DNA of 42,011 bases from an uncultured Bacteriovoracaceae bacterium (GCA_964012805.1 CAXGUD010000033.1:1-42011), one strand, 5' to 3'; positions 1 to 30,367 are shown, counted from the first letter of the stretch. Numbers and translations: made by a program. Notes: a model not told the origin generated them from the sequence alone.

Positions 1-1
1 G

Positions 2-685
2 AAGAAGGCCACTAAGAAAAAAGTCGCTAAAAAGAAAACAACTAAGAAGAAGGCCTCTCTTTCAAAAGCTGAGAGAAAAAAATTACTTCAAAGCCTTTTT
101 AGAAAACATGAAAAAGTTGCCAATAAAAGCCATGAAGTCTTTCAAAAATACTTTTTTGTTGATGCAATAGCTGAAAAATTGGGTGTCCTTCCTGAAGAAA
201 TTAAAAAATGCTTTAGCCTGGTCATGGAAAGTGAAGACGAATTTATGAAGAACTTGGGTGACGCAAAATCCTCATATCGTCAAATTAATTGGTTTGGTGA
301 ATTTGATTTAGATGGAGAGGTCACAGCGGCTAAAATTACGGATATTAAGCAGCGGGCGAAAAGTTTTTATGGTAATCACGGGACAGAAGGAAAATTCGCT
401 GGCTATATAGATATCGAGGATGATGAAGATCAAAAAGGCCCTTTTTGGAGGGTTGAGGCGAAAATGATTCGATCTACTCTAGGCAATGAAAAAATCGAAG
501 GTCCGCATAAAGAAGATCTTATTCAGGAAGTTGTCGCTTTTGCGGAAACATTAACCTTTATCTTAACAGGCATTAAAAATAGCAGGTTTCAAAATTTAAG
601 TGGCCTTGACCAAGGTGAGAGTGAAGCGCTTACTAGAAGCGAAGATAATCTTTCGAAACCTTTCAAACCTCTAAAAAAGAAGTAA
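2..685 (+). CDS. Hypothetical protein, 5'-truncated by the window edge, with a Lys/Ala/Thr-rich histone H1-like segment
   Basis: The frame of the 179..685 ORF is open back to base 2 and reads KKATKKKVAKKKTTKKKASLSKAERKKLL...AEKLGVLPEE, so the TTG at 179 is internal; C-terminal domain not recognised. Confidence 0.75.
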   Translation, partial: KKATKKKVAKKKTTKKKASLSKAERKKLLQSLFRKHEKVANKSHEVFQKYFFVDAIAEKLGVLPEEIKKCFSLVMESEDEFMKNLGDAKSSYRQINWFGEFDLDGEVTAAKITDIKQRAKSFYGNHGTEGKFAGYIDIEDDEDQKGPFWRVEAKMIRSTLGNEKIEGPHKEDLIQEVVAFAETLTFILTGIKNSRFQNLSGLDQGESEALTRSEDNLSKPFKPLKKK

Positions 686-739: not shown

Positions 740-1918
740 TTAAACAAGACTCATCTCAAAACCTGGAGGAACTTCGCCAACAATGGGCATCGCACTATCC
801 TTTCCAGCTTCTTTTCTTCTTTGAACAAGAAACAAAGACAATAACGTGTCATGTTTTATATAACCTTTTAAATCATCAATAGGAGTTCCTTCAAAAGCAC
901 AGTAGGAAAGGGCATGATAGTCTTTTGATATCGGGAGACCATAAATATACTCGATCATGGAAGTGAACAGCATGGATTTCTGATCTTTTGGTAAGGATCC
1001 TTTAAGCTCCAAGAAATTAAGGTATAAAACCTCAAGCTCACCACCCTCTTTAGGTGACTTTTTAAAAACTTTCTGGAGTTGAAAATATAATTTTAGAAAA
1101 GGCTGAAGCCTATCTATTTTAATTTTTTTTGAAGGAGAAGGAGTCCATAAGAGAGTGAGACCGACTATTTTATTTTTTGAATCTCGTGCCAAAATAAAAT
1201 TTTCTAAAAGGAGGTTATTCCACCTTTCAATTCTAAAGTTCAATTCGTCAAATTTTTCCTCAAAGCAAAACCCGAAGGACCTCTCTCTATTTTGATTCCT
1301 CAAAAATTCTGTTATCGCATCCTTATCCTCCATAGAACCTCTAGAAAATTTGACTCCCTCGATCCTTTTTTTAAAAATATTAGTTAAGTAATGACCAGGG
1401 TGTCGAAGCAAAATATTAACCATCTTATATTGAACAAGTGGAAAGTACTGAAAAGGATTTTTTTTATTATAAACAAGAGCATTCATTGCCTTTTGATTTT
1501 CTCTTAAAATACTCGTATAAAAAAACTCACACCCCCCAAACTCCTCTATCAAGTGGGCATGTTCTACAAGATCACCATAAAATTTTCTCCATATGACGCT
1601 AGCGCGTGGTCCAGGTTGAATTCTTAGATCACCCAAATAGCCAACCCACTTTTTCTCCCCTTTTATAAAACCTGGCCTTAAAACCAATGTTCCTACGCCG
1701 CAAATCCCAGCCTCTTTTTTAAGCCTCACAAGAAAAACAAAAAAAAGTGGCCCACAAAAAGATAAAAATTTAAAGAAATCAGGTTTCCGATCATAACTTA
1801 TCGCTGTTTTAGTGCCTTCCATTGGTAAAGTGGAAAAAAAAGAAAGAATTTCTTTATTGTCTTCTTCTGTGGCCAAGGATACTCTAGGATGCTTTAAAAA
1901 AAGATCATTTAATTTCAT
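740..1918 (-). CDS. GNAT/N-myristoyltransferase-like fold protein, putative acyltransferase
   Basis: RLAT-like start (SLATEED), motif A-like GYLGDLRIQPGPR, FYTSILRENQKAMNAL; size fits a tandem GNAT fold; GGGAGG RBS upstream. Confidence 0.6.
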   Translation of the reverse strand: MKLNDLFLKHPRVSLATEEDNKEILSFFSTLPMEGTKTAISYDRKPDFFKFLSFCGPLFFVFLVRLKKEAGICGVGTLVLRPGFIKGEKKWVGYLGDLRIQPGPRASVIWRKFYGDLVEHAHLIEEFGGCEFFYTSILRENQKAMNALVYNKKNPFQYFPLVQYKMVNILLRHPGHYLTNIFKKRIEGVKFSRGSMEDKDAITEFLRNQNRERSFGFCFEEKFDELNFRIERWNNLLLENFILARDSKNKIVGLTLLWTPSPSKKIKIDRLQPFLKLYFQLQKVFKKSPKEGGELEVLYLNFLELKGSLPKDQKSMLFTSMIEYIYGLPISKDYHALSYCAFEGTPIDDLKGYIKHDTLLSLFLVQRRKEAGKDSAMPIVGEVPPGFEMSLV

Positions 1919-1942
1919 TAAGTTGGCCTCCCGGACCTCTTT

Positions 1943-3016
1943 CTAAATCCAAAAGGAGATTTCTTTTTTACCCTCGTAACTCATTAACTTAGAATCTCCC
2001 TTAACCCCATAATGACGAAGCCTTTCAATTTCTTTATGAACCTCATCAGCTTCCGTGGAACGGAAAGTTGTCCTAAAATCAGACCTTAAACAATCTCCCT
2101 GATTTTTCATAATAACTGTATCCTGCTCAATCACTTTTCTTGTATAAAAAGAAATAATTGGTTTAAAAAGCATTCCAAAAAGAGGGATCTTATAGGCAAT
2201 ATAAGTGTAAACCCGACTTTTTAAAGTACTTACAGGAGATATCTGGGAGTTAATGATAAAACCATTTTTTGAACCAAAATTATAATCAACTCTAGTCAAA
2301 TTAGGCATAATAAATTGATCTGTATGAGTCATAGGATGTCCACCTGGGTTTAAAAGCATCTTGGCACCCCAGCTAAACTCATCTTCCTCTTGAAAATATG
2401 TAACCGTTACAGCACCATTTTTAGTTTCAACAACTGTAGGAACTTTCTTTGGTACGGCTTTTTCATCTCTAAACCAGCCTCTATGGACAAAAATAGTATG
2501 GGGGACATCAACAAAGTTTTCGGCAAGATTTGTGACTTCATTTTCAAAATCAGTAATCATAAAATAGCTAATCCAATCGGGGTTTAAAGCCTCTGGAAAC
2601 CTCCAGGGAGGTGTAGCAGGACATGGAACATCAGTATTATTATCACTCGGGCCCATCCAAACCCAAATGGCACCATCTTGTTCTACGCATGGAAATGATT
2701 TCAACTTTAAATTTTGGGAAGGCTTACTTTCTGGTCCCTCAGAGGGAACACAACTTACCTGCCCCGTATGATCGTACAGCCAGCCATGGTAGGGGCATAC
2801 TAACTCACCTTTAAAGACCTCACCCTTTGATAAGAATGCATGCCTATGAAGACATCTATCGTTAAGACAAGAGACCTTGCCATCATTATTTCTAAAAAGA
2901 ACGAGGGCCGTATCATATAAGGTCCTCTGTATAGGTTTTTTACCAACTTCCCTGCTTAAAGCAGCTATATACCAATTTTTTAAGAGCAGGCCATCCCTTT
3001 CCGTCAAAGATTTCAT
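1943..3016 (-). CDS. Rieske non-heme iron oxygenase alpha subunit (VanA/KshA/PaO-like)
   Basis: Rieske ligands CLH...CPYHGW; mononuclear Fe motif ENFVDVPHTIFVH; C-terminal VIEQD. Confidence 0.92.
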   Translation of the reverse strand: MKSLTERDGLLLKNWYIAALSREVGKKPIQRTLYDTALVLFRNNDGKVSCLNDRCLHRHAFLSKGEVFKGELVCPYHGWLYDHTGQVSCVPSEGPESKPSQNLKLKSFPCVEQDGAIWVWMGPSDNNTDVPCPATPPWRFPEALNPDWISYFMITDFENEVTNLAENFVDVPHTIFVHRGWFRDEKAVPKKVPTVVETKNGAVTVTYFQEEDEFSWGAKMLLNPGGHPMTHTDQFIMPNLTRVDYNFGSKNGFIINSQISPVSTLKSRVYTYIAYKIPLFGMLFKPIISFYTRKVIEQDTVIMKNQGDCLRSDFRTTFRSTEADEVHKEIERLRHYGVKGDSKLMSYEGKKEISFWI

Positions 3017-3028
3017 TGAGCTAACCCT

Positions 3029-4618
3029 TTAAAGGTTGTTAACTTTTGTCAAAAGATCAATCTTTATATCCCCTTCGACCATTCCGGATTTTTTTTTCAG
3101 GTCTAAATAATAATCTGTAGCAGCTGGGAAAACTTTGACCCTCAGATGACCTAATTGGTTCAGCTCTCGAGCTAGTTTGTAATGAAAATGGTTCAGTAAG
3201 GCTTCTTCACCTCTTTCCTCCAAACTTTTTATTTCATCCTTTTCTAACTCCTCTCCTTGAAATAGTGCAAGGTAAAAAGGTCTCTCTTGACCATTTTGAA
3301 CCCCCAAAAGAGAAACAGGCTTTTTCTTATCAACACCTAGAGACTCGAGTAGATTCCTGGCCACCTCCTCACCCATTTTTTCACCAACCATGTCCAGTCC
3401 CTCAACCCGTCCCTGGAAAACCAAAGATAAAGGTGATGAGACACCCTTTTCAACCCTCAATTCGTCTTTCAAATGATACCTTAAAAGTCCATTTCCTGCG
3501 CTTATCAAAGGCGAAACCCTCATTCCCACCTCAAGCTCCCATGCAGGAATGACTTTTCCCGAATCTAGAGAAAGAAATTCATAAAAGTGACTACGATATG
3601 CAAGTGTATAATCCCCGCGAAAAGGGATTGTCACAACTCCTTCTGTTGCGAAAAGTCCCTTCCCCTGAATATAGGTGCGTGGGAAAAGATCTTGCAGCTT
3701 TTTTGCATAAACTGAAGAAGTCCCTGTGTCCCAACAACTAATAAGCGATAAACGTGGCCAAAGCTTCAATAAATCTTCTGAATTAAGCTTGTCCTTAAAG
3801 CTCTTCAAAAGAAAAGCAGACTCTTTATCTTTTATCGGCTTAACCGACTCCAGATCAGAACTGAACTCTTCCCAAGAACCCTTTTCAAGCATTGAAATAA
3901 TCAATTCCCGATTGGACATCATAAACTCAATAAGTTCGAGAAAAAATGTAGGCCCCCAAATAAAAATAAAGGTTAAATTCCTAGCAGTAACCAAATAAAC
4001 GCATGTAGCCAATCTGGACGCTTCCACTGTGTTTGCCAAAGTCACAGAAGGTGGAACACACAAACATTTTCCGATGAGCCAACGATGGAGAGTAGGAAAA
4101 TAAGAAAGGTCATCATTGGTCCGCCCTTTTCCCCTCATATTAGTTGGCAACCAAGAAAGTGACCAATAATGATCTCCTTTACCAATCTCAGGAAAATTCT
4201 GAAAAAGGTCAAAAAGCCATGGGAAAATAGCACTTTTAAACTCATCCATCATAGATTGAGTATAAGGAATCCATTTTTCTTTATGAGAGCTCCCGCTTGT
4301 AGGCTGATAAAGGAAAGGCTTTTCTGCAAAAACACGCTCACCACTTTTTTCCCTCTCAATGAAATCTAGCCAATCATTGTATTGACTTGGCCCAAACGCC
4401 TTGACGAAAAAAGAGTAGCCTACTTGACCCTTAGAGTTAAATTTTCCTGCGAACTCTGTTTGTTTTAGTCCGTCACACAGTTTATTTAATTTTTTTTCTT
4501 GGACTTTTTTAAGGCGCTTAAAATTGCTTCGAAAAAGAAAGTAAGAGGGAAAAATGGCCAACTTCAAGAGCGGCACAATAAAAAACCTCAAAAAAGCTTG
4601 CCGGAAAAATCGTTTCAT
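3029..4618 (-). CDS. GH3 family (acyl acid-amido synthetase-like) protein
   Basis: PTSGSS..KWIPYT P-loop, GKGLFATEG (YxxSEG-like), HFYEF, GLLRYHLKD (GLxRYxxGD-like), FQGR...DMVGEKM. Confidence 0.85.
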   Translation of the reverse strand: MKRFFRQAFLRFFIVPLLKLAIFPSYFLFRSNFKRLKKVQEKKLNKLCDGLKQTEFAGKFNSKGQVGYSFFVKAFGPSQYNDWLDFIEREKSGERVFAEKPFLYQPTSGSSHKEKWIPYTQSMMDEFKSAIFPWLFDLFQNFPEIGKGDHYWSLSWLPTNMRGKGRTNDDLSYFPTLHRWLIGKCLCVPPSVTLANTVEASRLATCVYLVTARNLTFIFIWGPTFFLELIEFMMSNRELIISMLEKGSWEEFSSDLESVKPIKDKESAFLLKSFKDKLNSEDLLKLWPRLSLISCWDTGTSSVYAKKLQDLFPRTYIQGKGLFATEGVVTIPFRGDYTLAYRSHFYEFLSLDSGKVIPAWELEVGMRVSPLISAGNGLLRYHLKDELRVEKGVSSPLSLVFQGRVEGLDMVGEKMGEEVARNLLESLGVDKKKPVSLLGVQNGQERPFYLALFQGEELEKDEIKSLEERGEEALLNHFHYKLARELNQLGHLRVKVFPAATDYYLDLKKKSGMVEGDIKIDLLTKVNNL

Positions 4619-5203: not shown

Positions 5204-5295
5204 TAGTACAAGTGCGTCCGACCTCTAAGCTCAACTTTTCCCTATTCATTTTTTACACCCTATATTTTTTCTTAATATTAGATTATGATTTAGAT

Positions 5296-5745
5296 ATGAT
5301 GATACCTAAAAAAGATGATGATTACAAAGCCCTTATAGTAGATGACCACGAAGACGTCTGCCAGGTAGTTGAAGCTCACCTTTGTCAAAATGGTTTTAAA
5401 GCGCACCTAATAGATAAAGCCTACTCGGGACAAGAAGCCCTTCAGCTGCTTAGAGCAACGACATATTTCTTTATATTCTTAGACGTCAAACTTCCTGATC
5501 TAGACAGCACCAGCTTAATTGAGCATATAAGAAAAGATGATTCAAGAAATAAAGACGCAATTCTCATGATGTCATCAGGCCAAGATTTAGATGAAATGAT
5601 AAAAGAATACTTAAATCAAAAGATTGAAAAAGATAAAGTTGATATATTTTTACTTAAACCTTTTAACCAAAAAGACTGCGACAATTATTTTGATCTCGAA
5701 TTTATCATAAAACAGCAAAAAAAAAGACAAGAAAAGAAAAGTTAA
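5296..5745 (+). CDS. Single-domain response regulator (CheY-like receiver)
   Basis: LIVDD, phospho-Asp in FLDVKLPD, MMSSG, LLKPF; ATG at 5296/5299 preferred over GTG at 5212. Confidence 0.88.
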   Translation: MMIPKKDDDYKALIVDDHEDVCQVVEAHLCQNGFKAHLIDKAYSGQEALQLLRATTYFFIFLDVKLPDLDSTSLIEHIRKDDSRNKDAILMMSSGQDLDEMIKEYLNQKIEKDKVDIFLLKPFNQKDCDNYFDLEFIIKQQKKRQEKKS

Positions 5746-5891: not shown

Positions 5892-6224
5892 TTGAAGATA
5901 AGTATTGAGGTTACCGAAAACAGAAATATCTTTATCGTTGAAGGAGAGGTAGATTCGTTTTCAATTTCTCATTTTATCCAAGAGTTAGAGCTTCTTGAAA
6001 AAATAAGCGGCCAAAAAATTGTTATCGACCTCTCCAATATGAAATCAATAAATTGGCGCGGGCTATTAATTCTTTCAAGGAAAATTTTAGAAGCGAAAGT
6101 TAGGGGTGATGAATTTACTCTGGTCTGCAAAGACCAAGAAATCAAGGAAACTCTAACGCTTTTTACTCATCCCATGCAACTCTCTTTCTTCCCAACGTTG
6201 GAGGACCTTCTTGTATCACTTTAA
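5892..6224 (+). CDS. STAS domain (anti-sigma antagonist-like) protein
   Basis: VEGEVD, KIVIDLSNMKSINWRGLLIL, FFPTLEDLL follow the SpoIIAA/RsbV pattern; overlaps the next gene. Confidence 0.8.
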   Translation: MKISIEVTENRNIFIVEGEVDSFSISHFIQELELLEKISGQKIVIDLSNMKSINWRGLLILSRKILEAKVRGDEFTLVCKDQEIKETLTLFTHPMQLSFFPTLEDLLVSL

Positions 6225-7647
6225 TTTATTAAAAAAAATTATAAATTATTTCATTGCTTTTATTTTTGTAAAAGTTCTAATATTAAGTAATCATAATTGC
6301 CTGGCTTCAGATTCTAAAAAAACCAATAAATTAAAAAGAGTTCCATCATATAGCTTTAAATTCTTTCACGATCAGCTTTTACTGACAAATGATGAGCTGA
6401 AAATGAAGAAAAGAGACCAGATTTTGGCCGAAGAAAACCTCACCGTTTCAAAGTCTGGTCATTATCCCAAATTGGATTTAAAAGTTGGTGTCAACGGGGG
6501 CAGTGAACAAGAAGCCAGTTCATCCAGTGTAGATCCATCCGGAGGTGCTGGTAAAATGGGTCTTTCCGGAGGCTCAGAGGGTACTTCCAACTACAAGGTA
6601 AATTCTGATTCAATATCCGGAAGCTTCGGTCTTACTTATAATATTTTTTCAAGATTTGCGACACAAAATTCTGTTTTGAATGCACGAAATGGAGTCAATC
6701 AAAAGTTATTAGAAAGAGATATATTATTAGATCGAAAAAAAAAGGAACTAATCCACATTCTTCTTGAAATGCAGGCCTTAATAAAGGTAAAAAAAGTTTT
6801 ACTGAGAGCAGAGAATTTATTAGAACGCCTGGCCTTAAAAAGTAGAAATAAAACAAGAAAGCTTTTTTTTGGATCGAGCAGGGGTCTTAAAATTGATAAA
6901 AAATACAAAGAAATCCTTTTCCAAAAAGCAAAAGTTACAGAATATATTCATACAGGCCATTTGGCCCTTAGAAACTTAATCCCTCACTACAAGCAAAATT
7001 GGCTAAATGGCCTAAGAACTTTATCAATTACCTACAAACTCCCAAGTTTTGATTATGCCTCGAAAAAGTATTTAAAAAGGTCAAAAAAATCTAAGAACCT
7101 TTCCTTGGATATTCAAAATTACAAGAATATCCATAATACAACCACATGGGAAAGAGCTTGGATTCCCCTGGCCTTTTTATCTGCAAGTCAGACTACAACA
7201 CAGTCATTAAAGACAAAGGAAGTTTCTAATGGCTGGAGCGCTAGCCTAGTTTTCCAGTTCAATTTATTTGATGGTTTCTATTCGAGCGCAAGAAGATCAC
7301 AAGCCTTTAATATGTATAAAATAAGCAAAATAAAAAAAAGGGATCAACTTTCTAAAGGTATTGTTCTTTTAAGAAAAGATTATGCCCAGATAAAAACATC
7401 GTTACAAAAGAAAATTTTCATCCAATCTATTATAAGAGAAAAGAGATTTAAAATAAAAAATTTAAAAAGAATACGCGAAAGAGGTGTCTCTACTAAAACT
7501 GAAGAAAGTTTTATGCTACTTGAGTTAGCCAAAAAAGAATTGGATAAAAGAGAGGCCCAGAAAGATTATGAAATAGCACTTTTAAATATAGCTACCAATA
7601 TAGATGAATTAAATAAGGTAAAAATAAATGAATCAACAACCCCATAG
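6211..7647 (+). CDS. TolC family outer-membrane efflux protein
   Basis: Signal-like N-terminus, HYPKLDL, SFGLTYNIF, WSASLVFQFNLFDG, RGVSTKTE, long helical segments; adjacent to adaptor and RND genes. Confidence 0.8.
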   Translation: MYHFNLLKKIINYFIAFIFVKVLILSNHNCLASDSKKTNKLKRVPSYSFKFFHDQLLLTNDELKMKKRDQILAEENLTVSKSGHYPKLDLKVGVNGGSEQEASSSSVDPSGGAGKMGLSGGSEGTSNYKVNSDSISGSFGLTYNIFSRFATQNSVLNARNGVNQKLLERDILLDRKKKELIHILLEMQALIKVKKVLLRAENLLERLALKSRNKTRKLFFGSSRGLKIDKKYKEILFQKAKVTEYIHTGHLALRNLIPHYKQNWLNGLRTLSITYKLPSFDYASKKYLKRSKKSKNLSLDIQNYKNIHNTTTWERAWIPLAFLSASQTTTQSLKTKEVSNGWSASLVFQFNLFDGFYSSARRSQAFNMYKISKIKKRDQLSKGIVLLRKDYAQIKTSLQKKIFIQSIIREKRFKIKNLKRIRERGVSTKTEESFMLLELAKKELDKREAQKDYEIALLNIATNIDELNKVKINESTTP

Positions 7648-8329
7648 ATCATTCAAATCAATATTATTTTTAATGTCTTTTTTCTTTATGACAATCCTAT
7701 TGTTTTCTAACAAAGTAAAAGCAGAATCACTGAGAGAGTTGATACCATCTTATGGAGTTATAAAACCAAAATTTGTTTCCACACAGGTCGCCATAGGAAA
7801 CGGCATAGTCCACAAAATTAGGTATAAACTAGGTGATAAAGTAAACCGGGGAAAAATTCTCATCAGCATCATTGAAAGGGAAACTATAAGAAATTACAGA
7901 AATACACTTAAAGGTACTGTTGCAAAAATTCATGTCACCCCAGGAGCAGCAATAAGTGCAGGTATGCCACTTGTTACGATTGTGAATTCTGATAAGAAAT
8001 ATATGGAAATCGCTTTTTCTCCAGACGAATCAAATAAAATATCCAGAGGTTTGAGTGTTTTGTCTCAAAATAAAAATGTCAAGATTGGAACAATTAACAG
8101 ACTCTCTCCAATTGTTGATCCAGACACAGGAACTGTCCTTTCATTTGTAGATCTTAAATCCTTTGGAAGACCTTATCGAATTGGTGAAGTCCTTCCTATT
8201 TTCATTGAGGGTAAAATAAAAAAATGTAAAAAGGTTATAGGTTTAAAAGAGTTAGGACTTTATACAAATGGTTACAAAGTCAATTTCATTGCAGGGGACA
8301 AAGTTTGCTTGGAAGGCAAAGCACCCTAA
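7628..8329 (+). CDS. RND periplasmic adaptor (MFP) lacking the alpha-helical hairpin
   Basis: Lipoyl half-motifs GIVHKIRYKLGDKVNRGKILISI and GTVAKIHVTPGAAISAGMPLVTI; beta-barrel motif GTINRLSPIVDPDTGTV; only 233 aa. Confidence 0.8.
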   Translation: MNQQPHRSFKSILFLMSFFFMTILLFSNKVKAESLRELIPSYGVIKPKFVSTQVAIGNGIVHKIRYKLGDKVNRGKILISIIERETIRNYRNTLKGTVAKIHVTPGAAISAGMPLVTIVNSDKKYMEIAFSPDESNKISRGLSVLSQNKNVKIGTINRLSPIVDPDTGTVLSFVDLKSFGRPYRIGEVLPIFIEGKIKKCKKVIGLKELGLYTNGYKVNFIAGDKVCLEGKAP

Positions 8330-8360
8330 ATAATAATCTATTTTAAAAGAACTTAAGACT

Positions 8361-11318
8361 ATGGTTCAAGCATTTATTAAAAAAGGGGTTTTTACTATTT
8401 GTTTAAACCTCCTCATTCTTTTAATAGGCTATTTTACAATACCTAAGCTCTCTAACGAATTTATTCCATTAGTTGAAGTTCCTGCAGTTGCTGTAGTGAT
8501 TCCCGCTCCCACCATGAGTGAAGAAAATATAAAATATAATATTGTTTATCCTCTTGAAAAAGCTCTTCTTCGAACTGGAGAGCTGAAATCAATTGAAGCG
8601 GACATCGAAGAAGGGAAAGCTGTTTTTAAGCTTTTTTATAAGTGGGACTTCCTACCAGAAGAGTGCCTAAGAAAAGCAAGACAAACTGTTGAAAACTTAT
8701 CTCTTCCTGACGGTGTACTGGACCCTATCTTTGTTTTGTATAAACCCAGTAATAACCCAATTCATAGAGTCGTCTTTTATGGTCTTAATATAGAATCACT
8801 CTCTTCACATGCCCTAAAGATAAAAAGTAAAGTTGAAAGAATACCTGGCATCTCAGAGGTCTTGATCGCAGGACAGTACCTTGGAAAAACCTATGTAAAT
8901 ATAAAAAATAAAAAGCTTTCTCAATACCAAGTTAGCTCTCAAAACATTATTGACGAGGCTTATAATACATGGAAACTTAGAAAGTTTTATAAAGGATTTC
9001 CCCTCAACCACACTCTTTCTTTGCCTATAAAAAAACCAGAAGACATGAAACTCCTCCCCATATTAAACTATAAAAATGATCACATATATTTGAAGTGGAT
9101 AGGAGACATCACCAAACCACCAGGAAAGCCCCAAGTTATTTATGGAAGGGAAAAACCCGCCGTTGTTTTAGAAATTATAAAATCGGCAGGTGCCGATACA
9201 ATTTCAATTATAAATAAGTCTAAAAAGATAATTGAAAATTATAAAAATCCATCTATCCAAACTGAAGAAATATATAACGAAGCAATTAAAATTAAGGAAA
9301 GTCAAAATGGAGTATTTACAAACTTCTTCATCGGAGTTGTTTTAAATTCTTTAATTCTTATGATATTTCTAGGCTCCACAATTGGGGTATTGGTTGCTTC
9401 TGTAGTTTTCCCGACGGCACTTCTCGGTACATTTTTTACAATGGATCAATTAAGCATTTCAATAAACCTTTTTAGCCTGAATGGCTTTTCTTTAGCTGTT
9501 GGAATGATAACTGATGCCTCCACAGTTGTTTTAGAGTCTATAACTCAAAGAATAAATAGAAAAGAGCCTCTGTTTATGGCGTGCTTGAAAGGGGTTAAGG
9601 ATGTCAGTCTAGGGGTTTTGGCTTCTACTCTAACAACAGCAGGAGTTTTGTTACCAATAGCCTTTCAAAAAAATGTCTCTAGCAAACTTTTTTCAGACCT
9701 TAGTCTTACTGTTGTTTCCACCCAGATTTTCTGCCTTATCGCCGTTTTTAGTCTGGTACCATGGCTTTGTTTCAAAATGTTAGGAAAAAACACCAAGGCT
9801 CCTTCTTTAATCTTTTACCTTTTTAAAAAATCGGACACTCTGGTAAAAAGTATGATCAATCTGGCAAAAACCACTCAAAGCTTTTGCCGAAAAAAAGTAT
9901 TCTTTCGCCTTGTTATTCCTGGTATAGTTATCTTCCTTAGTTTAGGTTCTGTTGTTTTTTTACCAGATATGGAGTTTCTACCGCAGGTATCATCCCGAGT
10001 TTATTCATTAAAATATCCAATTAATTCATCTCGACAAAGCGTGGAAGGAATTGAAAAAAGAGATTTGATGGCCAGTACATTAAAAGACTGGAAAGAAGTC
10101 GTTTGGTCGGTTTCATCGTTTAGCAAAAACACAGTAGATATACTCTTTTCACTAAAAACCTCCAAATCTATTGAACAAATTAAAGATAAATTTAAAGGAA
10201 AAAACTTAATTTTTGAGAAAATAAATATATTGCCAGTCGGACCAGCTCCATCCGGAGAAGCCTATGGATATGATGGTCTCTACTTTATAAGCCAAAACTT
10301 ACCAGATGATAAGATTTCTAAACTCATCCAAAGTTTTTGCAATAGTAAAACCGTCAGTACTTGCTTAGGGCCTGAGTTTACCAAAAGTTATAACTTTCAT
10401 CTAAGCCCTGATCATTTAACAACCTACAGAATGGGCATATCAACATATCATGGTCTCAGCCAATTTTTTATTCCCTTACAGGAAATTGACTTATCATCAA
10501 TAGCCGACTTTGAATTTAAAAACCCATCAATTATGAAGATATCCTTTGAAAATTCTTTATTAGACTTACCAATTATCAACTCTAAAGGCGAACGAAACGT
10601 TATAGGAGATCTCTATAACCATAAAGTTGAGAAGTATGACACCATATTAAAAAGAAAGAACGGGGATGACTTCTTTCCACTATTTTTTAAACTCAAAGGA
10701 TCAACAATTGGATTAGCCGATAGTAGCATGAATTCAATTAGGCAAGGATTAGGCATAAAAGAGAAGAAAATTATTGGTATGGGAACTCTTGAAACAATGA
10801 ATGAAAGCTTTGGAGGACTCATAACGGCCCTTACAATTTCGGCATTTATTGTTTTTATAATACTGGTAATACAATTTAATTCTATCAGGCAAGCTTCCGT
10901 CATTATGGGTACAATCCCACTTACTCTTGGTGGTGCTATTGGTGGACTCATTGTAATGGGTGAAACAGTAAATGCAAGCGTTTTAGTTGGATTCATTCTT
11001 CTTATTGGAATAGTCGTCAATAATGGGATCTTTTTAGTCGAGGCAACCAACCAAAAGCTTTTTTCTGGAGGCAGTAAGGTCGATGCCATCGATTGGGCAG
11101 TATCGAGTAGAACAAGACCTATTTTAATGACCTCATTTTCAACAATCTTGGGAATGTTGCCTACTTTAATTATTGGTGGAGAAGGCTCAGAATTATATAG
11201 AGGTATGGCCATTGTAAATGTTTTTGGGATGATAACAGGAACATTTCTTTCCATCGTTGTCACGCCTATTTTTATAGAATATTTAGGTTTACCGAAGAAC
11301 ATTAGTAAGGGACGATAA
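8361..11318 (+). CDS. RND efflux transporter permease (AcrB/AcrD/AcrF family)
   Basis: 985 aa with two large periplasmic loops; TM4 AVGMITDASTVVLESI, TM10 GIVVNNGIFLVE, TM11 RTRPILMTS. Confidence 0.93.
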   Translation: MVQAFIKKGVFTICLNLLILLIGYFTIPKLSNEFIPLVEVPAVAVVIPAPTMSEENIKYNIVYPLEKALLRTGELKSIEADIEEGKAVFKLFYKWDFLPEECLRKARQTVENLSLPDGVLDPIFVLYKPSNNPIHRVVFYGLNIESLSSHALKIKSKVERIPGISEVLIAGQYLGKTYVNIKNKKLSQYQVSSQNIIDEAYNTWKLRKFYKGFPLNHTLSLPIKKPEDMKLLPILNYKNDHIYLKWIGDITKPPGKPQVIYGREKPAVVLEIIKSAGADTISIINKSKKIIENYKNPSIQTEEIYNEAIKIKESQNGVFTNFFIGVVLNSLILMIFLGSTIGVLVASVVFPTALLGTFFTMDQLSISINLFSLNGFSLAVGMITDASTVVLESITQRINRKEPLFMACLKGVKDVSLGVLASTLTTAGVLLPIAFQKNVSSKLFSDLSLTVVSTQIFCLIAVFSLVPWLCFKMLGKNTKAPSLIFYLFKKSDTLVKSMINLAKTTQSFCRKKVFFRLVIPGIVIFLSLGSVVFLPDMEFLPQVSSRVYSLKYPINSSRQSVEGIEKRDLMASTLKDWKEVVWSVSSFSKNTVDILFSLKTSKSIEQIKDKFKGKNLIFEKINILPVGPAPSGEAYGYDGLYFISQNLPDDKISKLIQSFCNSKTVSTCLGPEFTKSYNFHLSPDHLTTYRMGISTYHGLSQFFIPLQEIDLSSIADFEFKNPSIMKISFENSLLDLPIINSKGERNVIGDLYNHKVEKYDTILKRKNGDDFFPLFFKLKGSTIGLADSSMNSIRQGLGIKEKKIIGMGTLETMNESFGGLITALTISAFIVFIILVIQFNSIRQASVIMGTIPLTLGGAIGGLIVMGETVNASVLVGFILLIGIVVNNGIFLVEATNQKLFSGGSKVDAIDWAVSSRTRPILMTSFSTILGMLPTLIIGGEGSELYRGMAIVNVFGMITGTFLSIVVTPIFIEYLGLPKNISKGR

Positions 11319-11320
11319 AT

Positions 11321-11611
11321 ATGAAAGCCGTCATGCTGCTATTTGACTCCGAACTCGTCGAAGAGGCACTCTTAATGATAAGGGTGTCCAACATCCAGAA
11401 CTATACACACTTTACAGGACTTCATGGATCCTCTAAGGCCGGTAAAAAAGAAGGTTCTGCTGCTTGGCCAGGAACCAATGAAATTATTATGATTCTTTTA
11501 GATGATATTAGTCTTAAAAAGTTAAAAAAAGTTATTGGTGATTTTAAAATAAAGCACCCAGGAAGACCTCTTCTCTTTTTCAATTGGCCTTTGAGTGAGG
11601 TAGTTATCTAG
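11321..11611 (+). CDS. PII-like transporter-associated small protein (resembles the PG0541 family)
   Basis: MKAVMLLF...IQNYTHFTGLHG....GKKEGSAAWPGTNEII matches the PII-like pattern seen next to RND genes; 96 aa. Confidence 0.7.
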   Translation: MKAVMLLFDSELVEEALLMIRVSNIQNYTHFTGLHGSSKAGKKEGSAAWPGTNEIIMILLDDISLKKLKKVIGDFKIKHPGRPLLFFNWPLSEVVI

Positions 11612-14275
11612 ATGTTAAAGTTTCTTCAAAAAGTTGCAGAATATAGAAGGATTGTTTTAGTTTTTCTTTTTGTGCCCATAGTTGCTGTTTTTTTAAACTT
11701 TTCAAAGGGTCTTAGTTTTTTTCCTGAAGATAGTTTTATAAGATTTAAAATAGAGTTTTATGTTCCCAGTAAGATAAGCTCTGAAATCGAAAGAAAAGTA
11801 ACGACTACCGCCGAAAAAACTTTCAACGGCTTATCTAACTTAATTTCAATTGAATCCTTAACAAGACATGAAAGATCCGAAATAAACCTTATATTTGATA
11901 GGCTAAATGATCCAAACAAAATTCTTCTTTTTATTCAGGAGAAACTTGATCGATTAAAAATAACACTACCTGGAGATGTCAAACAGATTAAAGTCACCCA
12001 CTTAAAGCCACTTCCTCCACCAGATTTTAAAATAAATACAAATACTGGTTTTGATTTAACAAAATTCCAAAATTATATAAAAAATTTAGGTGCATCTATA
12101 AAAAGAATTGAACCAGAATTAGATGAAGACATTAATTGGAAAATACAACTTAATCCAAAAAAGCTTTTAAGCTACAACATTTCTATAAATCAGATATGGC
12201 ACTCTTTAAAAATAAATGGCTTCGCCTCCCGCTTAGGTTCAAAAGATGACTTAAGTTATTTTGTTGAATCAAACTTCCGCTCTCTTCTTCAATTAAAATC
12301 CACCATTATCGGTTCAAAATCCAATACTCCTATCAAACTTGTTGATATTGCAAGCATTAAACTTATCCCCCCTTCCGCACCTAGAATCATAAAGATATGG
12401 TTTAACAATGAAAGCACTAGTCTTAATAAAGTTAGTAATGAAATAAAAAAGTTATTCCCGTACGTTAAAGTTGAAAGATCGAGAACAAAGCTGTGGATCT
12501 CATTACTAAAAAAGCCCTTACTCTTTTTTAGTATTTTTACAATAATTTCTTTTCTTGTATTTTATTTTGTTTTCAAGGACATTAAAGCAGCAGGAAGTTC
12601 TCTTATTTTTAATTTTGGATTTTTTATTCATTACCTCTTCTGGTGCTTTATATTTAAAAATGGCATTACAATACTTGATTTTTATTCACTAATTTTAGGT
12701 CTTATTTTTGGCTCTTTCTTATGGCTGGTGCTTCTTAGTAAAATTAGGAATTCCTTTTATCACAAAAATAAAACTGGATTAAAAATAACCGTTCAGCAAT
12801 CAATACTTTTTGCTCTTTCAGAACTTATACCAACTTTTTTGATTTTATTTACTTTATTTTATCTATTTTCGCTCCCAACACTTTCTAATACCATCAGTCT
12901 ACCCTCTTCAAAAATTTTAAATCATTTTTTTTCAATTGCGATTCCAATCATATTCTATTTTTTAACTATTTTATCAGTTTTCAGTCCTTTAAATTGGGCA
13001 ACGAAACAAGGCCCCGAAAAAAAGCCCACCAGGCTCTTTTCAAGAAATGTATTTATTCCTCCACTCATTGTTCTTTTTATTCCAATTAGTATTTATTTTT
13101 GGCCTTTAAAGCCTTTAGGTATGAAGGACTTTAAAAGTGAAGAGAAGGTTTTTATTTCAAACCTTTCCCTATACAGAGGTCACCAAAATGCTCTTACATA
13201 TCAAAGCAAGCCTTCAGACACACCAAAAAATTACAAGTTAGTTCCTGAAAAGTTTTTGGAAAAAGAATGGGTAAATCAATGGGAAGTTACACCTAATGGA
13301 CTTCGGTCACTTCCAAATTTAGACATTTCTAGTTTTAAATTGGCGATGGAGGATATCCAACAGGAAAAAAGACTCTCCTTTTTTAACTATATAGATGATC
13401 AAATTGAAACATCAATTCCTATAAAACTTAATCAATTAATATTAGATGAAAGAAATTTTTCTCACCTTCTTATTGGCAGCAGGACCCCTGGAGAAAAGCC
13501 AAGTCACCTGGGGCATATTGCAAAGAAAACTATTGTTACAGTCCCAAAACTTATATTTCATGAGCAAATTAATCGAGTTAATCAATTTTACTTTAAGGAT
13601 TTAAATAAAAACCAATCTAACTTTTTAGAGACCCCAAAAAATGATGAAACGTTTAAAGAAACATCCCTCACTAGGTTCTGGAGAAAACACCATAAAAACT
13701 TCATCAAAGACCACCTAACTTCATTTATATTCATCTTTACATTTCTTTCACTTTATATGAATTCGTTCTATAGAGGATGGATTATAACAGCTATTTGTTT
13801 GGCACAATCTGGGTTATCAAGTGGAATACTTTATTTACTAAATGATGTTATACCACTTGATACGATGTGGCTTGATAATCTGCCGCAATGGCTTTCAGTG
13901 GCCGTCATTTTGCTTCTCACTAGGCCTATGGACTTAGAAAGAGTTAGAGGACTAGATATTGAAGTTGCCCTAAAGAAGCTTAAAAACTTCTACGCTCGCG
14001 CTATTTTAGCCGCATTATTTCTCTTTTCTTCAGGCCCCATTATTCTAGGCCTTCTATCCTCTTTTAATAACGATCTTATTCCACTATCCAGCCTATTTAC
14101 CCAGTCATCTCTTTTTATTGGAGCCCTAACACTTATTTTAGGCCTTATAAGCTACCGCTTTCTTTTTTTCAGTTTTTACATAAGTAGCGAGAAATCTATT
14201 GATAAAATGAGCCTTTTCCTTTTAAAAACCTTTTATAAAATAAAAAATAGTCGGAAAAATAAGGCAAAAGCCTAA
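11612..14275 (+). CDS. Highly diverged RND-like membrane protein (second subunit)
   Basis: PN1-like SEIERKVTTTAEKTFNGLSNLISIES...SEINLIF, KITLPGDV, IQLNPKKLLSYNISINQI, PIKLVDIASI; 1+5/1+5-type hydrophobic layout; proton-relay motifs missing. Confidence 0.72.
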   Translation: MLKFLQKVAEYRRIVLVFLFVPIVAVFLNFSKGLSFFPEDSFIRFKIEFYVPSKISSEIERKVTTTAEKTFNGLSNLISIESLTRHERSEINLIFDRLNDPNKILLFIQEKLDRLKITLPGDVKQIKVTHLKPLPPPDFKINTNTGFDLTKFQNYIKNLGASIKRIEPELDEDINWKIQLNPKKLLSYNISINQIWHSLKINGFASRLGSKDDLSYFVESNFRSLLQLKSTIIGSKSNTPIKLVDIASIKLIPPSAPRIIKIWFNNESTSLNKVSNEIKKLFPYVKVERSRTKLWISLLKKPLLFFSIFTIISFLVFYFVFKDIKAAGSSLIFNFGFFIHYLFWCFIFKNGITILDFYSLILGLIFGSFLWLVLLSKIRNSFYHKNKTGLKITVQQSILFALSELIPTFLILFTLFYLFSLPTLSNTISLPSSKILNHFFSIAIPIIFYFLTILSVFSPLNWATKQGPEKKPTRLFSRNVFIPPLIVLFIPISIYFWPLKPLGMKDFKSEEKVFISNLSLYRGHQNALTYQSKPSDTPKNYKLVPEKFLEKEWVNQWEVTPNGLRSLPNLDISSFKLAMEDIQQEKRLSFFNYIDDQIETSIPIKLNQLILDERNFSHLLIGSRTPGEKPSHLGHIAKKTIVTVPKLIFHEQINRVNQFYFKDLNKNQSNFLETPKNDETFKETSLTRFWRKHHKNFIKDHLTSFIFIFTFLSLYMNSFYRGWIITAICLAQSGLSSGILYLLNDVIPLDTMWLDNLPQWLSVAVILLLTRPMDLERVRGLDIEVALKKLKNFYARAILAALFLFSSGPIILGLLSSFNNDLIPLSSLFTQSSLFIGALTLILGLISYRFLFFSFYISSEKSIDKMSLFLLKTFYKIKNSRKNKAKA

Positions 14276-20629: not shown

Positions 20630-22099
20630 ATGAAGGGAAACAGAAAAAAAAATTCATTCCTAAAAAGCTTGACGATATCTACGCTTAAAAACTTTTTCAA
20701 GAAATACTTAATACTTTTTGCAGTTTTCTTCCTATCCTTTCCAATTGCCTCGTCTTTTTCTTACTACGGACGTTATGCCGTTGAAACAAAGCTAACCTTT
20801 AAAGGAGAGGTGGAGTTCTACTCTAAAAAAAGAGTCACTTTAAAGTCTGTCCAATCAAATAAAAGGTTAAAAAACCACATTCAAAAGACTATTAAAAAGC
20901 AAATCGATCATCTCATGGGCTACTTCCAAAGTACTTATGCTTTAAACACAATAGGATTTAAAGGCAGTCCTAGTGAAGACTATAAAACTAAGCCTCTATC
21001 CGTTAAAAAAAGTCGATCTAAAAATCACTGGGTCTTAACCTATGTTTTTGACGGAAAGGCAACCTTTGAAAAAAAGATTTTTGGTTCAAAAAAATCAATC
21101 AAAATTTCCCTCCGCCTTCCAAAAAACCCAAAGACTATTTATAAAATATCTAAGAAGGGACACAGAAACCTTTGCACAGATGAAGAGTATGACTCTGAAG
21201 AAGACTTTTTTTACTTTTGGGACCTTTCCAAAAAAGGGTGCTCTTTAGAAAATGACTTTAAAAACGTTCCTCTTATAAAAGCTACTTTAAAACCTTTAAA
21301 AAACACAAGGTGGAGTTATCCTGAATACGATAAGATCTACGGCGACAATGGAAATGGGAAGGACTTAATCATTTATACTTTTTTTGGTTATATGGATTCT
21401 CTAAAGGACACGGATACCCCAAACAAGCGAGATGAGTCATATAAGGCCTTTCAAAAGGTAAAAAACTCCCTTATTGAACGTGGGATGGAGACTATAAAAC
21501 AAGAGAGTGCTTTTAGAATTTTTCCAGAAGATGTCCCTTATTCTAAGCATTTTGGTGAAAATGAAAATTTTGTTATCTATGACGGTTCTAATTATACTTC
21601 CACGCTAACTAAGAAAGTTAGATTTCGCGGAAAATCAGTAAACCTAAAAATTCATCTTCTTCTATCAGATACGGATATTAACTCTGATGACGATACATTC
21701 CGCTACTTTTACGAGAAGGCCTTAAGGACAGCTGATATCATCGAATATGAAGGTCATTCAGGGCTGGGTGCAAATTTAAGCCTTGAAAAGCTGGAAATCA
21801 GCAAACTGAGTAAAAAGAAGTACCAACTCTACTTTTTTAATGCTTGTAGTACTTATAATTATTTTAATAACGAATACTTAAAGGCCAAAGGCGGGCCTAA
21901 AAACTTAGATATTATTTTGTCTGGGTTGCCGACATATGGAGATAGTGCATCAAATAATTCACTTGCATTTTTAGATAATTTTATAGAAGCTAAGTCCCTA
22001 ACTTTTCAGACAATTGTCTCAAGGATCGAAGACTCAAGTGATGGTGGGCCTTACCTTTACAGTGTGGTAGGCGATCATGATAACGCTTGGAAACCTTAA
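20630..22099 (+). CDS. Secreted hypothetical protein, putative caspase/gingipain-fold (clan CD) cysteine peptidase
   Basis: N-terminal hydrophobic export segment; DIIEYEGHSG and YQLYFFNACS about 30 aa apart; GAGGA RBS. Confidence 0.55.
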   Translation: MKGNRKKNSFLKSLTISTLKNFFKKYLILFAVFFLSFPIASSFSYYGRYAVETKLTFKGEVEFYSKKRVTLKSVQSNKRLKNHIQKTIKKQIDHLMGYFQSTYALNTIGFKGSPSEDYKTKPLSVKKSRSKNHWVLTYVFDGKATFEKKIFGSKKSIKISLRLPKNPKTIYKISKKGHRNLCTDEEYDSEEDFFYFWDLSKKGCSLENDFKNVPLIKATLKPLKNTRWSYPEYDKIYGDNGNGKDLIIYTFFGYMDSLKDTDTPNKRDESYKAFQKVKNSLIERGMETIKQESAFRIFPEDVPYSKHFGENENFVIYDGSNYTSTLTKKVRFRGKSVNLKIHLLLSDTDINSDDDTFRYFYEKALRTADIIEYEGHSGLGANLSLEKLEISKLSKKKYQLYFFNACSTYNYFNNEYLKAKGGPKNLDIILSGLPTYGDSASNNSLAFLDNFIEAKSLTFQTIVSRIEDSSDGGPYLYSVVGDHDNAWKP

Positions 22100-29534: not shown

Positions 29535-29544
29535 AGACTATAAT

Positions 29545-29575
29545 AAAAAAAAAAGAGGCCAACTGTGGCCTCTTT
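29545..29575 (-). terminator. Intrinsic terminator
   Basis: aaagaggcca-actg-tggcctcttt with an A run at 29545-29554 giving a U tract on the minus strand. Confidence 0.85.
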
Positions 29576-29610
29576 CTATGTTTTAAATAAACATAATCTA
29601 TAAAAATAAT

Positions 29611-29871
29611 TTACTGATTCCAATCTAAAACTTTTTTTGCCCAAGATGATTTTGTTTTTTCAACCCAAGGGCAATCTTTTAACTTATGGCTAACAAATTG
29701 TTCTAAAGCATCCGGCCCATCAGCATCAACCCATAATGTAAGATCCCATTCTCCCATTGTTGACCAAGCCCACTTTACTTCCTTCCACTCTTTTAAAAAA
29801 GACCAATCCCAGTCAGAAGAAGCATCGCCTTTCCATTTAACATCGACCTTTGCATACCATTTAGTTTCCAT
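29611..29871 (-). CDS. Stand-alone Lrp/AsnC ligand-binding (RAM)-like domain protein, Trp-rich
   Basis: EVKWAWSTMGEWDLTLWV...ALEQFVSHKL...VEKTKS follows the AsnC C-terminal pattern; no HTH; AAGGGG RBS. Confidence 0.7.
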   Translation of the reverse strand: METKWYAKVDVKWKGDASSDWDWSFLKEWKEVKWAWSTMGEWDLTLWVDADGPDALEQFVSHKLKDCPWVEKTKSSWAKKVLDWNQ

Positions 29872-29905
29872 TCGTTTTAACCCCTTAAATTACTTATAAA
29901 TTCAA

Positions 29906-30367
29906 TTACATATCAAAAAGAAAATGAATCGCTTTTGAAAAACACTTACCGGCTCTTTCTCCAACTTCTTTTAATTTGTCATTTGTACTTATGTTTTTTC
30001 CTTCAACTGTACTAAAACGGATGAACATATCAAAAAATATTGGATCTTGAGGGTCCTCACTATGAAAAATTTCTAGGTCTAGGTTAAAAGAATTATATAT
30101 CCAAGTGTTGGCAGCTCCAAAATCAGGTGCCCTCAATGACCTCACACGCTTCAAAATTGTATCCTTTTGATCATCGGGTAACTCTTTATGGGCCTTGATG
30201 GCAATATTAAAATCTATTTTATTATCACCTTGGACAACATGGAGCTTAAAGTCTTCTGATATCCCAGAGCTATTGACCCCTTCCAAAAAAGAATTAACAA
30301 GTCCTAATGCATGGCTATCTTCTCCAGCTTCTGCGTCCCTCCACAAAAACTTAATTTCTTGGCCCAC
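29906..30367 (-). CDS. Hypothetical protein
   Basis: 153-aa ORF, GTG start with AGGAAGG RBS; no recognised motif. Confidence 0.7.
   Translation of the reverse strand: MGQEIKFLWRDAEAGEDSHALGLVNSFLEGVNSSGISEDFKLHVVQGDNKIDFNIAIKAHKELPDDQKDTILKRVRSLRAPDFGAANTWIYNSFNLDLEIFHSEDPQDPIFFDMFIRFSTVEGKNISTNDKLKEVGERAGKCFSKAIHFLFDM

Follow-up and report, generated by a model that had tools for sequence, protein, structure and literature searches.

The window, a stretch of 42,011 nucleotides (nt) from an uncultured Bacteriovoracaceae bacterium (GCA_964012805.1, CAXGUD010000033.1), carries a cassette of six genes for an export system of the RND (resistance-nodulation-division) superfamily. It encodes a STAS protein, a TolC-family channel, a minimal periplasmic adaptor, a permease with a proton relay (RND1), a PII-like protein and a second RND protein which has no relay (RND2; Table 1). 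The six genes follow one another on the + strand with spacings of -14, -20, 31, 2 and 0 nt; re-measurement reproduced exactly the values given in an earlier note made from the sequence alone. RND2 has lost its proton-motor residues and yet is kept by selection, and for this reason it is likely to be a passive regulatory subunit. An asymmetric pump built from two RND proteins may reasonably be inferred from the sequences, and by analogy the cassette likely works like a heteromeric RND pump. The reading that we prefer, with a probability of about one half, is a single mixed trimer of the two permeases, with RND1 as the proton-driven pump and RND2 as a passive scaffold docking the PII-like protein, and perhaps the STAS protein.

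The proton relay of AcrB is described as consisting of D407, D408 and K940, together with R971 and T978 (PMC8277102). In an alignment of 27 RND2 rows, which include near-duplicates, no protein has an aspartate at either position in transmembrane helix 4 (TM4), a glutamate at the position of E392 in RND1 or an asparagine or lysine at the TM10 position, and the R-P..T motif of TM11 is missing throughout. The statement in the earlier note that the second RND lacks proton-relay residues thus holds for every copy aligned (0/27 rows keep any). The RND fold is retained: the RND2 model shows an RND-like periplasmic domain in its N-terminal part and some 12 predicted membrane helices, with a mean predicted local distance difference test score (pLDDT) of 57, and Foldseek matches it to MtrD and AdeB at E ~1e-16 with a template-modelling score (TM-score) of ~0.47. 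A profile of 12 RND2 copies, run against 1.84 billion representatives, finds 32 proteins at E <= 1e-30, of which 16 are near full length (835-919 amino acids, aa). Next come generic RNDs at E 1.5e-22 and weaker, matching mainly at the N-terminus, and this gap marks RND2 out as a distinct subfamily.

Compared with the second RND of an intact sister cassette, described below, RND2 is shorter by 67 residues after TM6 and, through several losses of 10-42 residues, in the second periplasmic loop, which now comprises about 200 aa. The N-terminal periplasmic stretch 51-116, which we take to correspond to the central pore helix of the AcrB trimer, is well kept, with QE[KR].D in 25/27 rows and with residues 51-100 giving the highest identity of the 50-residue blocks (45%). 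Invariant residues lie mostly at membrane ends and in cytoplasmic loops. Those on the cytoplasmic side include R379 and E404 around TM4-5, N-S-F-x-R after TM8 (27/27) and D-x-[ED]-R-x-R-G after TM10, the last of these being present in 27/27 RND2 rows and in 0/13 copies of RND1. The R-x-R-G element, likewise absent from RND1 (0/13), occurs in the RNDs adjacent to PII-like genes in Bacteroidota-phylum loci (4/4) and in 6/7 and 4/6 RNDs of the intact cassette, against a background of 1/9 among the other RNDs of the host genome and 26/80 among generic RNDs. Retention in the two permeases appears complementary, with the relay in RND1 and the cytoplasmic loop in RND2, and we put forward the D-x-[ED]-R-x-R-G loop as a candidate docking site for the PII-like protein.

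RND1 itself is likely to be proton-coupled. D385, E392, N887, N888 and R919 are found in 13/13 copies and T924 in 12/13, and RND1 has the defining features of the RND superfamily, namely ACR_tran matches over both halves, the TM4 aspartate and the TM11 Arg/Thr. The second TM4 position is Ala or Ser and the lysine is replaced by Asn (13/13), so that the D407/D408/K940 triad of AcrB is absent. The earlier note had contrasted four components of the cassette with AcrAB-TolC; these four do deviate, but RND1 also lacks the AcrB relay. A single-aspartate relay is the commonest type (50/81) among the generic full-length RNDs retrieved, a set chosen by likeness to RND2 rather than at random. The second RND of the intact cassette is also of this type, and in alignment the solved zinc pump ZneA has one aspartate at the same place and no lysine. 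The missing second aspartate and lysine of RND1 were therefore discarded as an additional oddity, 50/81 generic RNDs being alike in this respect. RND1 scores far below the cut-offs of all NCBIfam models of the hydrophobe/amphiphile efflux family HAE-1, with 173 and 171 bits against the MdtB and MdtC models (cut-offs 1584 and 1774), and equally falls short of the heavy-metal efflux (HME) model TIGR00914 (135 bits, cut-off 701). Its best sequence match in the PDB is MdtB (E 2e-44).

The cassette is kept as a unit. The order STAS-TolC-adaptor-RND1-PII-RND2 is found, as far as contigs reach, in 13/13 loci from Bdellovibrionota genomes, nine of them complete, with varying flanks. Two genomes of the same genus have all six genes in this order, one of them (G002) with different flanks and without the CheY-like gene that lies upstream in the window. 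A search of 401 genomes of the phylum with NF045581, the NCBIfam model for the PG0541 family to which the PII-like protein belongs, gave 16 matches, 13 of them above the cut-off. Three matches in other genera of the host family mark full six-gene cassettes with RND2 29-33% identical. Weak NF045581 matches below the cut-off (G176, G292, G454 and G427) lie outside cassettes of this kind. When all species genomes were scanned with the alignment of PII copies, 13 loci emerged; one (L052) was a false match and was removed, five of the 12 true loci are contigs already counted, and the remaining seven have the same order as far as their contigs reach, three being complete. In metagenomes, 50 matches to the adaptor alignment were returned, of which 36 are weak; among the 14 close loci (E <= 9e-36), some of which repeat a contig or genome, every one has this gene order over the length that its contig covers. 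The metagenome contig L076, with 61% G+C, also holds the cassette, the other cassette contigs having 28-53%. With two candidates scored per genome, a full-length RND2 match was found in 4/401 phylum genomes, and all four carry the PII gene in this cassette. An RND2 homologue named as from a Bacteriovoracales bacterium is 76% identical; whilst narrower searches returned close kin only, wider ones reached cassettes with RND2 at 23-33% identity, and the arrangement is therefore not unique to this genome.

All six genes are under purifying selection. Among three same-genus genomes, the ratios of non-synonymous to synonymous substitution rates (dN/dS, Nei-Gojobori method) are 0.04-0.09 for STAS, 0.10-0.13 for TolC, 0.03-0.08 for the adaptor, 0.05-0.06 for RND1, 0.02-0.09 for PII and 0.08-0.10 for RND2, with 0.04-0.10 in five neighbouring control genes. 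RND2 is thus no pseudogene. The earlier note had named uniqueness to this genome together with relaxed selection as fatal to its proposal; the order in 13/13 loci and the dN/dS of 0.02-0.13 across all six genes are the reverse of this. Intergenic gaps range from -55 to +32 nt across seven cassette loci, which is consistent with one operon. Promoter and terminator scans, at 28 against 33 expected and 9 against 5.9, did no better than shuffled sequences and are uninformative on co-transcription. No substrate-related gene recurs in the flanks of the genome and metagenome loci, and no flank is shared beyond close kin, except that in L042, L050 and L073/L074 a predicted lipoprotein is encoded upstream. 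For want of such recurrence, deduction of a substrate from neighbouring genes was dropped.

The earlier note had described a PII-like gene between the RND genes, and the model of the 96-aa product, encoded 2 nt after RND1, bears this out. It has a PII fold, with a pLDDT of 86.6 that is low at residues 45-49 (a flexible loop). The best fold matches are CPII (Z 10.6; root-mean-square deviation 2.8, 84 residues aligned), DUF3240 (Z 9.9) and SbtB (Z 9.8), and Foldseek agrees. The window protein itself gives no match to the Pfam P-II family, and PF00543 matches 11/24 of its relatives. It belongs with the PG0541 family, having a score above the NF045581 cut-off and a gene beside an RND permease. In P. 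gingivalis, PG0538-PG0541 have a gene of this family following those for TolC, adaptor and RND (PMC12094164, PMC1887533). Among 61 genomes from the phylum of G410, the source of the Bacteroidota-phylum loci, four NF045581 matches lie above the cut-off, each in a locus that consists of a TetR-like gene, TolC, a full-length adaptor (337-374 aa), a single RND with a DD/K relay and then the PII-like gene. PII-NG genes are reported to sit in czc operons, for example Geobacter GSU2134-2137, with a role described as untested (PMC7726332), and PII trimers are reported to bind and regulate trimeric transporters (PMC10710835; bioRxiv 10.1101/2023.08.10.552651).

Two further components depart from the usual tripartite pump. 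The adaptor lacks its hairpin, as had been noted before: a hairpin that spans 69 alignment columns in adaptors of the intact type (376-392 aa) is missing, and the remainder aligns without gaps to contiguous lipoyl domains. The length is 214-238 aa in 12/12 copies. Its C-terminus is about 40 aa shorter than in the intact type. Cys200 and Cys227 are invariant in 12 copies and would form a periplasmic disulphide. The lipobox pattern of a lipoprotein anchor occurs in 0/12 copies. In an alignment of 11 copies, TolC profile positions 104-453 align to E. coli TolC with short gaps only, and because of this the channel appears to have no extension replacing the hairpin. In Borrelia, BesA is described as lipidated, with a short link replacing the hairpin and with the membrane-proximal domain kept, and the hairpin-less pump is reported to be functional (PMC3807786). 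Short-adaptor clusters of 231-313 aa in the ESM Atlas, taken as leads only, are commonest in Spirochaetota, Pseudomonadota and Bdellovibrionota. The host genome contains a second hairpin-less adaptor (L019:4163-8093, on G000:C34), which has 287 aa, retains the C-terminal part and precedes an RND of 1036 aa with a single-aspartate relay, and hairpin loss can therefore no longer be regarded as peculiar to this cassette. The unusual coupling of pump and channel which the earlier note proposed is real, but the second adaptor and the precedent of BesA make it less special.

The STAS domain is recognised by PF01740 with 32 bits (cut-off 22.6), and the protein scores 27 bits against TIGR00377 (cut-off 53). 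The position of the phosphorylated serine is hydrophobic in 10/10 cassette copies and Ser in 7/7 intact-type copies, so that the absence of a DSSG motif, recorded earlier for the window, is general to the cassette. The host genome (estimated 100% complete) has no SpoIIE match (PF07228) and no RsbW-type match (PF13581) above the cut-off. Given the loss of the serine in all ten copies and the lack of such matches, the STAS protein is apparently no phosphorylation switch.

An explanation for the serine-less STAS protein is provided by the intact sister cassette, with its RsbW and SpoIIE. In the Bdellovibrionota family f7 the PII gene is present in 9/9 sampled genomes, and the seven with enough contig (two further contigs being short) have the order RsbW-type kinase, STAS with serine, SpoIIE phosphatase, TolC, hairpin adaptor, RND, PII, RND; one of these loci has a split TolC, and in two the contig ends within the second RND. 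A single genome from family f16 has RND, PII, RND. The first RND of the f7 cassette has an unusual relay of its own, with Asp or Glu at the TM10 lysine position (6/7) and an extra Asp in TM11 (6/7). In quick, unrooted trees RND1 clusters with the first RND of the intact cassette, with Shimodaira-Hasegawa-like approximate likelihood ratio test (SH-aLRT) support of 98 in a tree of 34 rows and 94 under a mixture model with 19 rows, and a union of RND1 with the second intact RND is rejected (approximately unbiased test, p-AU 0.0001). RND2 sits on a very long branch, and the mixture model puts the four cassette groups on one side of a branch with support of 89. Its descent from the second RND of the intact cassette is favoured because of the same gene position. 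The window cassette is likely a streamlined descendant of the intact one, a direction which follows from the losses and not from a rooted tree.

If RND1 and RND2 assemble as one mixed trimer, RND1 would drive pumping by the proton gradient. Substrate would also enter via RND1, since much of the second periplasmic loop is missing from RND2; the default substrate for such pumps is a small envelope-derived or toxic amphiphile. On the cytoplasmic face of RND2 there would be a docking surface for the PII-like trimer and possibly for the STAS protein. The PII trimer would then gate the pump from the cytoplasm, on the model of SbtB gating SbtA, whilst STAS would be an accessory independent of phosphorylation. 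At the other end the top of the permeases would contact TolC directly, with the small adaptor as a brace, as proposed for BesABC. We advance only tentatively a bolder version of this scheme, in which RND2 would be a pseudo-transporter that has given up proton coupling and most of the drug-binding porter and is now an obligate regulatory protomer filling one or two places of the trimer. Through its invariant cytoplasmic D-x-E-R-x-R-G loop, a pump with fewer than three proton motors would be coupled to a PII trimer and to a STAS protein that lacks the serine; this pump would dock to TolC without hairpins, the intact RsbW-STAS-SpoIIE cassette being the starting point.

Counted in favour of the mixed trimer is that the best-kept part of RND2 includes the N-terminal periplasmic trimer region. 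The same observation speaks against a homotrimer of RND1 as the pump, with RND2 outside the working trimer or entering it to switch it off, as a decoy, an assembly factor or a membrane anchor for PII and STAS; so does the intact cassette, which has two full RNDs at the same positions, fitting an inherited heteromer. We regard such a homotrimer as unlikely, although the two proteins are only 16% identical, RND1 is near full length with a complete relay of the commonest generic type (50/81), and it is the cytoplasmic motifs rather than the transport core that RND2 retains. A division of labour like that of MdtBC, in which energy comes from RND1 and RND2 binds the substrate, seems rather unlikely. 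It would accord with the report that the MdtB relay matters most in MdtB2C and that substrates are bound mainly on MdtC (PMC4338810), the relay being exactly what RND2 lost. Yet the second periplasmic loop of RND2 is down to ~200 aa, several segments being deleted relative to the second RND of the intact cassette; distant RND2 copies are 22-28% identical over residues 451-700, where RND1 blocks across 451-800 show 25-46%; and the invariant residues of RND2 are chiefly at membrane ends and in cytoplasmic loops.

The presence of signalling folds in two of the six genes, and of RsbW and SpoIIE in the intact cassette, could suggest that export is no longer the main role of the system and that it is instead an envelope-spanning signalling device, in which the permeases sense the periplasm or outer membrane and inform PII and STAS. 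An adaptor too small for the usual tunnel and flanks without a recurrent substrate-related gene would suit this idea. It is nonetheless improbable: the relay residues of RND1 are invariant (13/13), TolC is retained at full length, the STAS protein lacks an RsbW/SpoIIE output in this genome, and a working pump without hairpins is reported in Borrelia (PMC3807786). Finally, RND2 and STAS might be decaying relics carried in the operon. RND2 branches are long, it evolves about twice as fast as RND1, and the distribution is patchy (4/401 genomes). This reading is largely refuted, and highly improbable, given dN/dS of 0.08-0.10 for RND2 and 0.04-0.09 for STAS, RND2 frames that stay open over 857-919 aa at 23-33% identity, and RND2 motifs invariant in 27/27 rows.

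A number of points weigh against the mixed trimer with a docking RND2. A shared trimer interface is not assured, because RND1 and RND2 are only 16% identical whereas MdtB and MdtC are ~50% identical. The RND2 model is unreliable at residues 468-716 (pLDDT < 50), and the dN/dS ratios are rough, dS being 1.0-3.5 and thus close to saturation. The placement of RND2 is ambiguous, since the tests allow it to join either the second RND of the intact cassette (p-AU 0.45) or RND1 (0.21). R-x-R-G is present in a third of generic RNDs and may therefore be structural rather than a PII site; furthermore, the PII-adjacent sets which bear it are kin. In the four Bacteroidota-phylum loci PII stands beside one canonical RND, so that PII has no need of a passive subunit. 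Canonical PII proteins have a C-terminal RxR and a GDGK motif in the B-loop; the PII-like protein stops at residue 96 and has neither (the RxR judged by eye), and metabolite sensing, which the metabolite-regulated exporter of the earlier note would require, may for this reason be reduced or absent.

Parallels can be drawn with several known systems. E. coli MdtABC-TolC and P. aeruginosa MuxABC-OpmB, heteromeric pumps of the HAE-1 type, likewise combine two permease genes with one adaptor. Paired RNDs have been described (PMC7015380, PMC10872679), in one data set with tandem permease pairs only in the MdtBC clade (PMC10872679), and unequal roles are reported for the subunits of MdtB2C (PMC4338810). 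MdtB and MdtC are, however, adjacent and ~50% identical, whilst the RNDs of the window are 16% identical with a PII gene between them; the cassette thus falls outside the MdtABC/MuxABC group, whose adjacent ~50% identical pair stems from a proteobacterial duplication. In alignment MdtB keeps the DD/K relay, where RND1 has D-A/N and RND2 has none. Adaptors of the MdtA type carry a hairpin. As separate observations from the host genome, a further tandem pair of 1086 and 1040 aa, both of the single-aspartate type, follows a full-length adaptor (L018:4417-12239, on G000:C18), and a 512-aa RND-like open frame lies right after a TolC match (G000:C11, ~105,000-107,100). The latter matches the N-terminal loop and C-terminal membrane helices of RNDs and may be a half-size permease.

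The operons of the P. gingivalis type share with the window the small family after the RND and the order TolC-adaptor-RND-PII. The Bacteroidota-phylum loci (4/4 above the cut-off) differ in having one canonical RND and a full-length adaptor, with no second RND thereafter and no STAS match seen. In Geobacter, czcABC with PII-NG also places a PII-fold gene inside an RND operon, but these pumps are of the heavy-metal type, and RND1 is far below the TIGR00914 cut-off. BesABC of Borrelia burgdorferi resembles the cassette in its hairpin-less adaptor without a compensating channel extension; BesA is a lipoprotein with a membrane-proximal domain and BesB is a single RND, whereas the window has two RNDs and an adaptor without a lipobox, with a short C-terminus and an invariant Cys pair. 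SbtA-SbtB and AmtB-GlnK provide a functional model for the PII-like protein, with CPII and SbtB as its nearest folds, although SbtA and AmtB belong to transporter families other than RND. No PII-RND complex was found in the literature searched. The intact f7 cassette shares the order STAS, TolC, adaptor, RND, PII, RND, but adds the RsbW-type kinase and SpoIIE. It also retains the serine of STAS, the adaptor hairpin and a complete second RND, whose relay is of the single-aspartate type.

By the defining features of each, the cassette lies outside the AcrAB, MdtABC, Czc and anti-anti-sigma families. Paired RNDs, adaptors without a hairpin and PII genes next to RNDs have all been published separately. 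In a literature search, beyond whose scope lay most subscription journals, neither this cassette nor its intact sister was found described, and nor was an RND subunit that lacks a relay altogether. The system offers a natural test of how many protomers of a trimer need a proton relay, since one selected paralogue has none. It also bears on the role of PII-like proteins in RND operons, for which RND2 gives a candidate docking motif, and on how the junction between pump and TolC is sealed when the adaptor has no hairpin; for all of these questions the intact sister cassette is a matched natural control. The reach of the system is limited by its rarity (4/401 sampled phylum genomes).

Table 1. 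Genes of the six-gene cassette (window coordinates) and loci of its intact sister
Feature	Location	Strand	Remarks
STAS protein, 110 aa	5892..6224	+	orphan, anti-anti-sigma-like; PF01740 E 9e-8; hydrophobic residue at phosphoserine position
TolC-family outer-membrane channel, 478 aa	6211..7647	+	PF02321 (OEP) E 2e-12; Ser/Gly-rich insert in N-terminal half
Minimal periplasmic adaptor, 233 aa	7628..8329	+	HlyD_3/lipoyl; lipoyl and beta-barrel domains, without alpha-hairpin
RND1 permease, 985 aa	8361..11318	+	PF00873 (ACR_tran) 362 bits; single-aspartate relay
PII-like protein, PG0541 family, 96 aa	11321..11611	+	NCBIfam NF045581 48.2 bits, cut-off 45
RND2, relay-less RND paralogue, 887 aa	11612..14275	+	PF00873 52 bits (cut-off 28), residues 25-274 only
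Intact sister cassette loci, family f7	L025, L026, L028-L030, L033, L035		
Eight-gene intact cassette	L025:2608-13404, L026:3304-13925, L030:2719-13398		partner-switching module fused to RND operon

The gene after RND2 is on the opposite strand and overlaps the RND2 stop codon, and an antisense open reading frame (ORF) at 10613-11302 is treated as a shadow of RND1. The CheY-like gene (window 5212-5745) encodes a stand-alone receiver domain. Its homologue in G001 begins at an ATG matching window 5296, and the true protein is therefore probably of 149 aa. The earlier note had it preceding the cassette; it does lie 146 nt upstream of STAS here, but it precedes STAS in only 2/10 genome loci that reach upstream, and with either start (5212 or 5296) it was excluded as a member of the cassette. 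Further upstream, a three-gene run on the - strand (window 740-4618), also kept in G001, encodes a GH3-family acyl ligase, a Rieske oxygenase and a 392-aa protein without a clear Pfam match. An ORF at window 1-685 (counterpart L016:1-777) runs off the contig start; its G001 version starts with Lys/Ala/Thr-rich repeats, which to our eyes resemble histone-H1-like tails. Downstream, a 489-aa ORF at window 20630-22099, with no Pfam match at E 0.01, lies upstream of a trypsin-like gene. At window ~27000-30000 the G+C content falls to 23-29%, compared with 35% for the genome, over the N-terminal half of the gene for a 930-aa 7TM-DISM histidine kinase and beyond.

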